Positions 42,069 through 46,674 of a DNA stretch of 64,000 nucleotides are shown here, one piece after another. Position 1 is the first letter of the stretch. The number at the start of each line of letters is the position of its first letter. This DNA comes from Leptolyngbyaceae cyanobacterium (lineage in GTDB: Bacteria; Cyanobacteriota; Cyanobacteriia; Phormidesmidales; Phormidesmidaceae): contig CBDHHL010000056.1 in the NCBI GenBank assembly GCA_965263355.1, positions 992,001 through 1,056,000 on the forward strand. The letters run 5' to 3'. The notes beneath the pieces are model-generated. The model did not search any database. It worked only from the letters and a program-made list of their open reading frames with translations, and was not told the origin of the DNA. The position numbers and the translations under genes were made by a program.

Positions 42069-42270
42069 GTCTGTACCGTATCCCCATAGAAAAAGCTTAC
42101 ATACTAGCTCAGTTGGTAGAGCATCTGTTTGCAGAACAGACTGTCGCAGGTTCAATTCCTGTCGTATCACGCTTATCCACATCCAGAACTGATGTGTTTT
42201 CCAAAGAAAGCGCTAGGTTTTAACTTGGATGTGGTTGGCACAACGCTTTTTCAACTTATACGGCACAGGC
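42069..42270 (+). ncRNA. structured RNA, scaffold copy A, enclosing a tRNA-like cloverleaf (42098-42170) with a defective acceptor stem
   Basis: Outer stem GTCTGTACCGTAT/ATACGGCACAGGC; inner stem GAAAAAGC/GCTTTTTC; TTACAT and AACTT linkers. Confidence 0.55.
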
Positions 42271-42274
42271 TTTT

Positions 42275-42315
42275 GGTGGCGTAGGCAAATTGGTAAAGCC
42301 ACACGGCTTTCAATT
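42275..42315 (+). pseudogene. 5' half of tRNA-Glu(TTC)
   Basis: GGTGGCGTAGGCAAATTGGTAAAGCCACACGGCTTTCAA, then no 3' half. Confidence 0.6.
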
Positions 42316-42332
42316 CTCACCCGACCCTCCTT

Positions 42333-42423
42333 GGAGAGATCGCCATTGGTAAAGCAAACTGCCTGCTAAGCAGTCGTGAGATAGCAAATCTCACTATGGG
42401 TTCGACTCCCATTCTCTCCTCCA
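42333..42423 (+). tRNA. trnS: tRNA-Ser(GCT)
   Basis: ACTGC-CTGCTAA-GCAGT; long variable arm GTGAGAT/ATCTCAC; CCA. Confidence 0.85.
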
Positions 42424-42518
42424 GAGAACATGGTATAACCGAATAACACAGTTGAAACCTGTAGTTTTCTCGACGGTCAAAAATAGTTCTAGACGTGGAA
42501 ATGGTTTACACAGAAAAT

Positions 42519-42593
42519 CCCCTGGTAGCTCAGTCAGGTAAGAGCGCTTGTCTGAAAAACAAGAGGTCATCCGTTCAAATCGGATCTGGGGGA
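42519..42593 (+). tRNA. trnF: tRNA-Phe(GAA)
   Basis: CTTGT-CTGAAAA-ACAAG; ATCCG-TTCAAAT-CGGAT. Confidence 0.88.
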
Positions 42594-42618
42594 CTTGCAC
42601 TCACTGATGAGTGCTCAA

Positions 42619-42694
42619 TGGGGTGTAGTTCAATTGGCAGAGCGCCTGGTTGTTACCCAGGAAGTTAGAGGTTCGACTCCTCTCGCCCCAGCCA
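42619..42694 (+). tRNA. trnN: tRNA-Asn(GTT)
   Basis: CCTGG-TTGTTAC-CCAGG; GCCA end. Confidence 0.88.
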
Positions 42695-42699
42695 TTTAT

Positions 42700-42775
42700 T
42701 GCCGAGTGGACGAATTAGCAAGTCGCCTGACTCTGAATCAGGAGATTGTAGGTGCAAATCCTACCTCGGCATCCA
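42700..42775 (+). tRNA. trnQ: tRNA-Gln(CTG)
   Basis: CCTGA-CTCTGAA-TCAGG; TGCAAAT T-loop; CCA. Confidence 0.82.
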
Positions 42776-42776
42776 A

Positions 42777-42850
42777 TCCCCTGTGGTGCAATTGGCAGTT
42801 CACGTCCGATTTTGGATCGGAAAATCTAGGTTCAAATCCTAGCGGGGGAG
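42777..42850 (+). tRNA. trnQ: tRNA-Gln(TTG)
   Basis: TCCGA-TTTTGGA-TCGGA; GGTTCAAATCC. Confidence 0.85.
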
Positions 42851-42864
42851 TTGGAGTACCAAAT

Positions 42865-42941
42865 ACTCTCGTAGCCCAACGGTAAGAGGCGCTGGTCTTA
42901 GAAACCAGAGGTTGTGGGTTCGAATCCCACCGAGAGTACCA
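42865..42941 (+). tRNA. trnL: tRNA-Leu(TAG), short variable loop
   Basis: CTGGT-CTTAGAA-ACCAG; 5-nt variable loop; ACCA end. Confidence 0.85.
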
Positions 42942-42944
42942 AAT

Positions 42945-43068
42945 CGGGATGTAATTCAGTGGTCAGAGGCCTTGTTTGCAATTGGTAGACATGCCGTGCT
43001 CAGAACGCGGTTGCTGTGGGTAACTCCTAGCGGAGACGCTTCGCGAACGAATCTCTGGCGACCCACCA
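42945..43068 (+). pseudogene. chimeric tRNA remnant: Pro-like 5' end fused to a Leu(CAG) body with a T-loop insertion
   Basis: CGGGATGTAATTCAGTGGTCAGAG, then D arm TGCAATTGGTAGACATG, CCGTG-CTCAGAA-CGCGG, and GTGGGT[26-nt insert]CGAAT. Confidence 0.6.
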
Positions 43069-43108
43069 AATACCTCACCTATACAACCCATGGACTTTTA
43101 AGTCCCTT

Positions 43109-43182
43109 GCCCCTGTGATGCAATTGGTAGACATGATCCGCTTAAAACGGATTTGTTGCAGGTTCGACTCCTGTCAGGGGTA
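43109..43182 (+). tRNA. trnL: tRNA-Leu(TAA), short variable loop, no intron
   Basis: ATCCG-CTTAAAA-CGGAT; GCAGG-TTCGACT-CCTGT. Confidence 0.85.
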
Positions 43183-44905: not shown

Positions 44906-44908
44906 CAA

Positions 44909-44983
44909 GGGAGTGTCGCCTAAAGGATGGGCATCGATCTTCTAAATCGATCTGTGTAGGTTCAAATCCTACCACTCCTGCCA
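44909..44983 (+). tRNA. trnR: tRNA-Arg(TCT)
   Basis: TCGAT-CTTCTAA-ATCGA; GCCA end. Confidence 0.88.
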
Positions 44984-44993
44984 ATCAAAAAAT

Positions 44994-45094
44994 GGGCCTG
45001 TAGCTTAACTGCGAAAGCATCTGCCTTGCAAGCAGAAAGATGTCGGTACTCTAGCGAGAAGGCTAACGCCTACGAAGCCGACCAGTGGCCACCA
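44994..45094 (+). pseudogene. tRNA-Ala(TGC) with a 25-nt T-loop insertion
   Basis: TCTGC-CTTGCAA-GCAGA; GTCGGT[ACTCTAGCGAGAAGGCTAACGCCTA]CGAAGCCGAC; imperfect acceptor stem, ACCA end. Confidence 0.7.
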
Positions 45095-45113
45095 AATAAT
45101 TTCTTTAACGCAT

Positions 45114-45191
45114 GTTGGCCGAATCCGAAGTGGACGAGGAGCTGGTCTGTGAAACCAGTGTTAGCGGGTTCAAGCCCCGTCGGTCAACCCA
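45114..45191 (+). tRNA. trnH: tRNA-His(GTG)
   Basis: CTGGT-CTGTGAA-ACCAG; G-1 pairing with C73; CCA. Confidence 0.85.
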
Positions 45192-45194
45192 ATT

Positions 45195-45281
45195 GGAAGG
45201 TGCCGCTGAATGGTCGGCAACTGGTCTTGAAAACCAGGGTGTGGTAGAGCTGCAGGGGTTCGATTCCTCCACCTTCCTCCA
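45195..45281 (+). tRNA. trnS: tRNA-Ser(TGA)
   Basis: CTGGT-CTTGAAA-ACCAG; long variable arm; CCA. Confidence 0.85.
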
Positions 45282-45282
45282 A

Positions 45283-45354
45283 CCACCAGAAGCCGAGAAG
45301 CGAGGCGCTGTGCTGATAACGCAGAGGCAGCAGGGGCAGTACCTGCCTGGTGGA
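45283..45354 (+). tRNA. trnI: tRNA-Ile(GAT), atypical T-loop
   Basis: CCACCAG/CTGGTGG acceptor; CTGTG-CTGATAA-CGCAG; GCAGG-GGCAGTA-CCTGC. Confidence 0.65.
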
Positions 45355-45380
45355 TTGTTTATTTTTTATCGGAGGTCGAA

Positions 45381-45581
45381 ATGGTACATATTAGATTCGA
45401 AGGTCGCTCCTATGATGTAGCGACAGCTCAGCTGGAAGTGATGCCCAGTATGGGTGATGGCGTAGTGAAAGAAAGAGTTGCCCAATATCTAGAGGTGCAG
45501 CCTACGCGTTTGCAATCTTATGTGGTTGACCATCGACCCAATGGCGATATTATCGTTCGCCCAGAGGCTGTTTATGGTTAA
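45381..45581 (+). CDS. 66-aa protein ending in Gly (candidate ubiquitin-like/beta-grasp protein)
   Basis: [21 protein letters not shown]...[10 protein letters not shown]. Confidence 0.75.
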
Positions 45582-45606
45582 AGATTGCTAGATTTTTTCT
45601 CTTTTT

Positions 45607-45750
45607 TCCTGCGCCCTAACCTGTAAAGCATACACACTTTCGGCTTAAAAACCGGGAAAGTGCAAGTTCGAATCTCGCGAGACCGCCATCGGTCTGTAGC
45701 CCAATTGGTAGAGGCACCATGTAACTAAGGCTTTTCAAACTTGCGTGGGA
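45607..45750 (+). ncRNA. structured RNA, scaffold copy B, with a circularly permuted tRNA-like module (YrlA-type topology)
   Basis: T arm GCAAG-TTCGAAT-CTCGC, then AGACCG-CCAT-CGGTCT, then D arm TAGCCCAATTGGTAGAGGC, enclosed by TGTAAAGC/GCTTTTCA and TCCTGCGC/GCGTGGGA. Confidence 0.65.
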
Positions 45751-45768
45751 TTTTTATTAAGTTTGTAT

Positions 45769-46494
45769 ATGAGCGAACATCGACTGAGTGAAATTGTGAT
45801 TGAACGTCCCCGTGGTGGGATGCGTGTGAGTTCTAGAAAGCTGAAGGGACATCGAAAAGAACTGGAGCAGATTACGCGGGTAGCAACCGAAGATGGGTTG
45901 CTGAGTCCCTATTTGATTAAGCCCAGACGGAAGTCAAAGTGGTTATCAGATCATCTAGGGCCATTGCGTAAGTTGTTGCAGTCTCAAGTGGGTCAGCCCT
46001 GGGATCAGGTCTATAGTCGCCTGTGTCGCGATCTAAATCCTCGTACCATGGCTGGCCAGCATGTGATCGATCATCTCTGGGGTTATGTAGAACAGCATGT
46101 GGAGATCATTGATGGTTTACCCTATACCAAACAGAATCACTGGTATTGGCAAGGTGAACGACGTTCTTTATCGGACTACTATGGAACAAAGTTCTATGTG
46201 AATCCTGAGACAGGTTTACTGTGTGTGGCTCCTAACGTGTGTCGCAGACGAGAACCTGCCCCTCCTGAAGAGGTGATTCAGGTGAACACCTATGAACAGT
46301 ATCGTTGCATAGATCAGATTTGGTATTGCATCACTTTTGAGATATTACATTCACCATTTGCATGGGATGTGCTGTTCAAAGACACTCTTGATGCTAAAAA
46401 GGCTTTACAGTCCTATCGCCGTAAGATCTATGCTGCGAAGAAGCGTCAATGTGGAAAGCGAGACCTTAAAAAGATTCGTAGAATGTTGAAGTAA
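45769..46494 (+). CDS. basic hypothetical protein
   Basis: MSEHRLSEIVIERPRGG...LSDHLGPLRKLLQSQVGQPWDQVYS...FYVNPETGLL. Confidence 0.8.
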   Translation: MSEHRLSEIVIERPRGGMRVSSRKLKGHRKELEQITRVATEDGLLSPYLIKPRRKSKWLSDHLGPLRKLLQSQVGQPWDQVYSRLCRDLNPRTMAGQHVIDHLWGYVEQHVEIIDGLPYTKQNHWYWQGERRSLSDYYGTKFYVNPETGLLCVAPNVCRRREPAPPEEVIQVNTYEQYRCIDQIWYCITFEILHSPFAWDVLFKDTLDAKKALQSYRRKIYAAKKRQCGKRDLKKIRRMLK

Positions 46495-46496
46495 TT

Positions 46497-46674
46497 GGCA
46501 GTTGTTGCTGTGACCTAACTTAAAGAGCTTACATTCTCTACCAACCAAACAGGTGGTGTGCTGATTGGAGAGTCAGCACTGCAAACCCGGACCTTAGCGG
46601 GCGAAGTTATCTTATTGTCTTTTAGCAAACGATGACTTCATGCTCTTTTAACTCATGCAGCGGCAACATCTGCC
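46497..46674 (+). ncRNA. structured RNA, scaffold copy C, immediately upstream of the TROVE-like/vWA gene
   Basis: GTTGTTGCTGTGA/TCATGCAGCGGCAAC outer stem; CCTAACT; AAAGAGC/GCTCTTT; TTACAT; AACT. Confidence 0.55.

Follow-up and report, generated by a model that had tools for sequence, protein, structure and literature searches.

What are the repeated structured RNAs that lie beside a Ro60-like gene in a Leptolyngbyaceae cyanobacterium, and what might they do? The locus was studied in a 64,000-nt window of contig CBDHHL010000056.1 (992,001 to 1,056,000), and all positions refer to this window. The original prediction described three copies (A, B and C) of an RNA scaffold with different inserts, and proposed that they are modular RNAs bound by a divergent TROVE-like protein encoded at 46706. 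All three were recovered at the predicted positions and with the predicted layout, and their inserts are as claimed: a tRNA body plus a hairpin in A, a permuted tRNA in B and a three-hairpin class in C. The inner stem is present and ends in AGC, with a length of about 8 bp that exceeds the one first described. The count of three was incomplete, as the 5'-half pattern of the scaffold has a fourth match, copy D.

42069..42270, + strand: scaffold copy A, a tRNA body that has D, anticodon and T arms and a Cys-type loop and lacks a free acceptor end, with an extra hairpin.
44113..44320, + strand: scaffold copy D, a 12-mer of the sarcin-ricin loop (SRL) at 44149-44160, followed at 44211-44264 by a mimic of 23S H42-H44, the GTPase-associated centre (GAC).
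45607..45750, + strand: scaffold copy B, a tRNA in circular permutation, in the order anticodon-like arm, T arm, closed acceptor hairpin and D arm.
46497..46674, + strand: scaffold copy C, with a payload of three hairpins ("class C"); the copy stops 31 nt 5' of the start codon of the Ro-like gene.

A scaffold with covarying stems

The exact 5'-half pattern, which is partly derived from the window's own copies, matched the window four times against a mean of 0.01 (maximum 1) in 200 shuffles. Outer and inner stems form in copies A and C, with z about -6 (100 shuffles); both form in copy B too, but its folding energy is ordinary (z 0.2), and copy D has a z of -2.0. The extra hairpin of copy A (42170-42243) ends in AACTT and a stem that pairs with the hairpin's own 5' end, and is possibly a nested, decayed scaffold.

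Related loci were gathered through the 46706 protein. At the start these were 28 loci in genomes of Cyanobacteriota, Acidobacteriota, Bacteroidota/Rhodothermales and Chthonomonadaceae, one 595-kb phage record and one plasmid of Kovacikia; 50 cyanobacterial stretches were added, then 32 loci from viruses and 131 from metagenomes. A scaffold scanner yielded 277 calls from the earlier sets and 252 from the viral and metagenome loci (9 of 32 and 112 of 131 loci, respectively), giving 529; some genomes are present twice, and the distinct, in-register copies number 436. As the original prediction implied, the scaffold is kept outside its source genome, occurring in several bacterial phyla and on some viral contigs. 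The consensus 5' half consists of an outer stem (GCGC), a CCYRAY loop, the inner stem ending in AGC, and NTACAYAC; the payload follows, and the 3' half is made up of the GCT side of the inner stem, RACTT and the outer stem. Phage-type copies (L098:4186-4400, L029:11396-11547) have a GTC outer stem and another permutation, with the T arm first and the anticodon arm last.

Mutual information at pairs independent of the scanner is 0.63 (O9), 0.56 (O10), 0.80 (I6) and 0.49 (I7), and over I5-I8 with O9 and O10 it ranges from 0.31 to 0.80, against a maximum of 0.05 in shuffles, which ignore kinship. The scaffold is present in 60 of the 67 loci bearing the Ro-like gene, with a median of 4 and a maximum of 10 copies per locus; six of the other seven are cut by a contig edge or have incomplete genes, which leaves L014 as a genuine miss. 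Nearly all scaffold calls in gene-bearing loci (251/252) share the strand of the Ro-like gene, and most copies lie less than 4 kb from it, some being farther away or on other contigs. Comparative sequence analysis thus establishes the scaffold and its covarying stems, and the scaffold RNAs are very probably real structured RNAs.

Co-inheritance with a Ro-like protein

46706..48142, + strand: divergent Ro60-fold protein, helical ring plus vWA domain (profile search, structure model, vWA residues).

A 92-sequence profile of the 46706 family matches human Ro60 (E 4e-16) as well as Xenopus, Deinococcus and phage Ro60, the last over profile positions 29-400. The model of the 46706 protein has a pLDDT of 93.6, and the structural matches listed through rank 12 are all Ro60 (TM 0.55-0.66); sequence identity to solved Ro60 is 14-16%. 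The vWA metal site is kept throughout the family (D301, S303, S305 and D387 in 92/92 members, T363 in 90/92). Pfam TROVE (PF05731) gave no match in the 46706 protein or in any of the 92 members, and vWA_Ro60 matched 20/92 (E up to 0.01). From its model, the 46706 protein is predicted to have a Ro60 fold. With an E limit of 0.001 the family counts 930 representatives, and some members of 700-900 aa have extra domains (P0125, P0136, P0140, P0145, P0159, P0161, P0165, P0166).

Protein and exact pattern were sought in the same 301 cyanobacterial genomes. The protein is found in 35, the pattern in 32 and both in 31, so that the pattern occurs in 31/35 genomes with the 46706 family and in 1/266 without it; a reversed-pattern control matched 2 genomes. 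Of the four genomes in which only the protein was found, three have incomplete or broken genes, and the fourth has a scaffold that the exact pattern misses (L059). Canonical TROVE genes are present in 40/301 genomes; 32 of these are without the divergent family, and among them only G034 has the pattern (one match). The predicted co-occurrence with the vWA protein family is borne out by these counts, and the scaffold tracks the 46706 family, not canonical TROVE, a co-inheritance as well established as the stems. Damaged modules were also seen: in G145 (L070:12675-13340) a deletion has joined the beginning of the gene for a 66-aa protein, described below, with the last part of the Ro-like gene, and G191, G245, G297 and G299 have partial or broken module genes too.

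The arrangement resembles Ro60 (Rsr) with YrlA, YrlB or Yrn1, in that a Ro60-fold gene has same-strand RNAs within a few kb, according to passages of PMC4201824 and PMC12135203 (phage phiLo Ro60). The scaffold likewise shares with Y RNAs, as treated in parts of PMC4201824, the succession of terminal stem, internal loop, second stem and effector module, and permuted tRNA modules occur in both. The Ro motif of Y RNAs given there is 5' GNCGAAN0-1G / GGUCCGA; GNCGAA occurs in 7/436 distinct scaffold copies, whose consensus loop is CCYRAY opposite RACTT, and the original prediction was right that the canonical motif is missing. Rfam Y RNA models found no match in window positions 38000-52000 or in five related loci. 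The scaffold loci differ from Ro60-Y RNA loci in having no Pfam TROVE match and up to 10 RNAs each, and from Y RNAs in adding normal-order tRNA bodies, lone anticodon loops, 23S rRNA mimics and a link to genes for a ubiquitin-like (Ubl) protein, an E1 and a possible E2.

Because the scaffold is conserved, co-occurs with the protein and the protein has a predicted Ro60 fold, modular RNAs bound by the Ro-like protein are likely, and judged by co-occurrence this protein probably binds the scaffold RNAs. The original prediction of modular RNAs with a divergent TROVE-like protein stands to this extent, on the Ro60 fold (profile and model), conservation and co-occurrence; copy D, the 23S mimics, which are the least usual of the payloads, and the Ubl, E1 and possible E2 genes had been missed. 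Taken by itself, the RNA handle is the Y RNA idea in a new form: the locus would work like a Ro60-Y RNA pair but fails Y RNA sequence tests.

Payload classes and 23S rRNA matches

Payload classes were assigned by regular expression over the 529 scaffold calls, resulting in 168 normal-order tRNA bodies, 135 permuted tRNAs, 63 with a T arm only, 84 short inserts, 28 SRL+GAC, 19 H69, 27 other, 4 class C (an undercount, 16 having been counted in the earlier, first-set scan) and 1 GAC only. The insert of copy A scores 47 bits against the Rfam tRNA model over positions 8-63, the extra hairpin standing beside this tRNA body. In 95 of the 148 normal-order tRNA copies that were parsed, CAYAC of the scaffold gives 4-5 acceptor-like pairs, which leaves no free end for charging. 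A 7-nt anticodon-like loop is present in 46/83 short inserts, 37 of these loops starting YU. The class C insert has three hairpins and, in several phyla, occupies the position immediately 5' of the Ro-like gene; no rRNA match was found for it.

Some other payloads recur without a tRNA or rRNA match (L019:11081, L129:61, L150:308, L120:558, L212:155). A two-hairpin insertion in the T loop is found in tRNA-like genes and in payloads and recurs across cyanobacteria (window positions 42946-43066 and 44994-45096; L038:5367, L046:10555, L074:11757, L008:9154); we take these insertions to be perhaps small dispersed repeats.

The rRNA-like payloads match defined parts of 23S rRNA, for which the helix names (H42-H44, H68, H69, SRL, GAC) are used here as what we take to be the labels on E. 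coli numbering. Copy D (44211-44264) matches positions 1180-1233 of the Rfam large-subunit (LSU) rRNA model at E 2.1e-9, below the gathering score, which one copy of the SRL+GAC class exceeds; a profile of the GAC class matches E. coli 23S 1050-1114 at E 5e-12. The H69 class matches 1909-1941 of E. coli 23S (profile against 1911-1941 at E 1e-7; 27/28 identical bases in L003), with a weak H68-like piece next to it (E 0.66). The SRL 12-mer (E. coli 23S 2654-2665) is exact in copy D and in 28 other copies, at an offset of 9-11, and a scaffold-derived stem closes it in 21-22 of 22 copies; the SRL piece alone is too short for significance, and one 23S gene has the 12-mer at another place as well. 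Copy D joins pieces that are about 1600 nt apart in 23S rRNA, with H42-H44 in full. In SRL+GAC copies the order of the pieces is reversed relative to rRNA, their spacing is fixed, and rRNA-type helices persist, with compensatory changes in places: one pair is TA in 12 copies and CG in 10. Wherever a locus had a taxon name, the rRNA-mimic classes are cyanobacterial. In one GAC-mimic copy (L122:849-1059) the SRL 12-mer is replaced by an altered 5' loop, and H43 contains a short duplication.

On the same comparative footing the payload classes and 23S matches are established, and the payloads form a library in which tRNA bodies and permuted tRNAs stand next to lone anticodon loops and 23S rRNA mimics. 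The sites that they copy are the parts of tRNA and 23S rRNA that known ribotoxins attack and translation factors engage. A small RNA that copies an rRNA binding site is also found in the rRNA-mimicking mRNA leaders of ribosomal proteins; the mimics here are, in contrast, stand-alone cassettes outside ribosomal protein gene leaders, SRL and GAC are joined in them, and H69 is copied.

ARAGORN and Rfam label several payloads as tRNA or LSU rRNA, as would be expected if the copies were DNA repeats or decayed tRNA and rRNA fragments with no function. That explanation is hardly credible given the covarying stems, the strand bias, the fixed chimeric order in which distant rRNA pieces are joined and the strict co-inheritance with one protein family.

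Putative tagging genes and the proposed role of the locus

45381..45581, + strand: 66-aa protein with invariant C-terminal RPEAVYG, a putative ubiquitin-like modifier (50/66 loci).
53994..54836, + strand: orf280, an OB-fold domain (residues 82-156) and a C-terminal region with conserved GICLS, putatively E2-like.
54878..55510, + strand: E1/ThiF-family adenylyltransferase with invariant Cys166 and without CxxC zinc motifs (Pfam, alignment).

The 66-aa protein ends in glycine in all aligned members (Gly66, 28/28), and profile searches with it gave no match. Cys258 of orf280 is kept in 33/34 sequences; the model is poor at residues 251-280, and its structural match list is filled by the OB domain. 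The E1 matches ThiF in Pfam (E 9e-30), its adenylation motifs and Cys166 are invariant in 16/16, and from its position Cys166 would be the catalytic Cys; E1 activity is predicted from family and motifs. PADLOC matched the E1 domain only. Among 66 related loci the Ubl gene is present in 50, in each of them amid scaffold copies, orf280 in 35 and the E1 in 32, and orf280 is found in 34 of the 35 genomes bearing the Ro-like gene, unlinked cases included. A repeat-rich secreted-type protein of 1612 aa, which we take to be haemagglutinin-like, is encoded on the - strand (48756-53594) between the Ro-like gene and orf280/E1; these genes are closer together in many relatives.

The three genes are likely a ubiquitin-like tagging set, with orf280 a putative E2-like member. 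The 66-aa protein could instead be a sulfur carrier of the ThiS/Urm1 type, or be joined to RNA, and the set could modify or cap RNAs held by the Ro-like protein. By profile the E1 is nearest to ThiF/MoeB/TcdA-type enzymes and the OB fold of orf280 could bind RNA, yet all ThiF/MoeB family scores are far below cut-offs and no sulfur-relay or tRNA-thiolation genes are among the conserved neighbours, which leaves such chemistry very improbable. Comparable prokaryotic Ubl systems are CBASS Cap2 and Bil/Bub. Prokaryotic Ubl-E1-E2 systems, as set out in passages of PMC1779556, likewise have an E1 with a catalytic-type Cys, a small Gly-ended protein and a Cys-bearing partner; here, in contrast, no JAB was seen, the E2 is only putative, and the set is tied to Ro60 and noncoding RNAs, an association that those passages do not mention.

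Since the Ubl, E1 and possible E2 genes are co-inherited with the Ro-like gene, the likely mechanism is no longer that of a Y RNA pair alone. RNAs would be cut from the array transcript or made as units, and the Ro-like protein would bind the CCYRAY/RACTT internal loop, whose placement resembles that of the Ro site in Y RNAs. The payload would be engaged by anticodon nucleases, rRNA ribotoxins or RNA-modifying toxins; the E1 would activate the 66-aa protein and pass it to Cys258 of orf280, from which it would be joined to the captured protein. The Ro-RNA complex would thereby be an RNA-programmed, E3-like adaptor, and the tag would inactivate the attacker and protect translation. We tentatively favour this baited tagging, in which Ro-bound RNAs recruit proteins that attack tRNA or rRNA, because the handle is constant, the payloads are toxin and factor sites, and the Ro family tracks a likely modifier-E1-E2 set without an obvious E3. 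The module is also present on the 595-kb phage record and, with partner genes, on four viral contigs, and such carriage fits protection from host RNA-cutting defences. More tentative still is the wider possibility of an RNA-programmed Ubl ligase, a bacterial system borrowed by large phages, in which a Ro60-fold protein would use swappable guide RNAs, their payloads being miniatures of tRNA and of ribosomal functional centres, to pick targets by the RNA structure they recognise and pass them to an E1-E2 relay, as a broad trap for attackers or binders of the translation machinery.

The proteins captured could also be the cell's own translation factors, which the Ubl set would tag, retuning or stopping translation in stress or infection: elongation GTPases by SRL+GAC, recycling or subunit-joining factors by H69, and synthetases or modification enzymes by tRNA bodies. 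Copy D unites the SRL with full H42-H44 as one factor-binding centre, more than a nuclease needs. Lone anticodon loops and the variety of anticodons, however, suit nuclease bait better, and phage carriage suits protection as well as shut-off; we regard host-factor tagging as somewhat unlikely.

41657..45360, + strand: long tRNA gene array of the L-array type, with copies A and D embedded.
45769..46494, + strand: 241-aa accessory protein of no known family (16/66 related loci).

According to parts of PMC8421152, L-arrays are induced by translational stress, as host-factor tagging would lead one to expect, and a sponge role has been suggested for their tRNAs. The array shares its kind and an upstream HNH gene with the Anabaena PCC 7120 trn operon (passages of PMC8421152 and PMC10272220), and the L-array passages of these papers make no mention of Ro60, TROVE or Y RNA. 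Unlike this locus, the PCC 7120 and Tolypothrix L-arrays, two of three controls in which the scaffold was looked for, are without it; the third, on a Calothrix plasmid, has a scaffold 5' half with a tRNA body. No Ro-like gene was found on that plasmid, the Calothrix chromosome not having been searched. NADAR and DUF6847/DIP1984 genes in the array (44456-44905 and 43230-43688) are weak partners, found in 2 and 8 of 66 loci, respectively, and truncated tRNA remnants lie at 42278-42335 and 43921-43968.

A passive sponge, in which the Ro-like protein would stabilise decoys and Ubl, E1 and orf280 would belong independently to the same stress response, is simple, agrees with the role suggested for L-array tRNAs and would accommodate scaffold copies away from the Ro-like gene. 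It is unlikely in view of the constancy with which orf280 accompanies the Ro-like gene, even unlinked, and of the position of the Ubl gene amid scaffold copies. The Ro60 fold, tRNA-like modules as in YrlA (parts of PMC4201824) and the HNH gene, present in 11/66 loci, would fit a Y RNA-like tether for RNA quality control or repair, comparable to Deinococcus Rsr-Y RNA-PNPase, each payload docking another nuclease or repair enzyme. With no RtcB or PNPase among the annotated neighbour clusters, and with the rRNA mimics and the Ubl set left without explanation, a tether is improbable.

Baited tagging thus remains our tentative preference, and a mimic library with rRNA payloads joined to a likely Ubl relay is a combination that matches no system found. 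The papers turned up by literature searches do not describe, in their titles or the starts of their abstracts, the scaffold, rRNA-mimic Y-like RNAs or Ro60 with Ubl; Burroughs and Aravind 2016 may list the protein operon, and if that paper or its supplements do so, the protein part is less novel. Standard tools mis-call the payloads as tRNA or LSU rRNA, which matters for annotation. Whatever the mechanism, small RNAs with SRL-GAC or H69 on a swappable handle offer natural minimal models for functional sites of the ribosome, and mimicry of the Y RNA type is extended from tRNA to rRNA. The long-standing question of the purpose of the tRNA mimics in bacterial Ro60-Y RNA pairs becomes directly testable by payload swaps. 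If the tagging is true, RNA would take the part that E3 proteins have in eukaryotes as the source of specificity, and this would amount to a new defence logic and to a tool that can be programmed.

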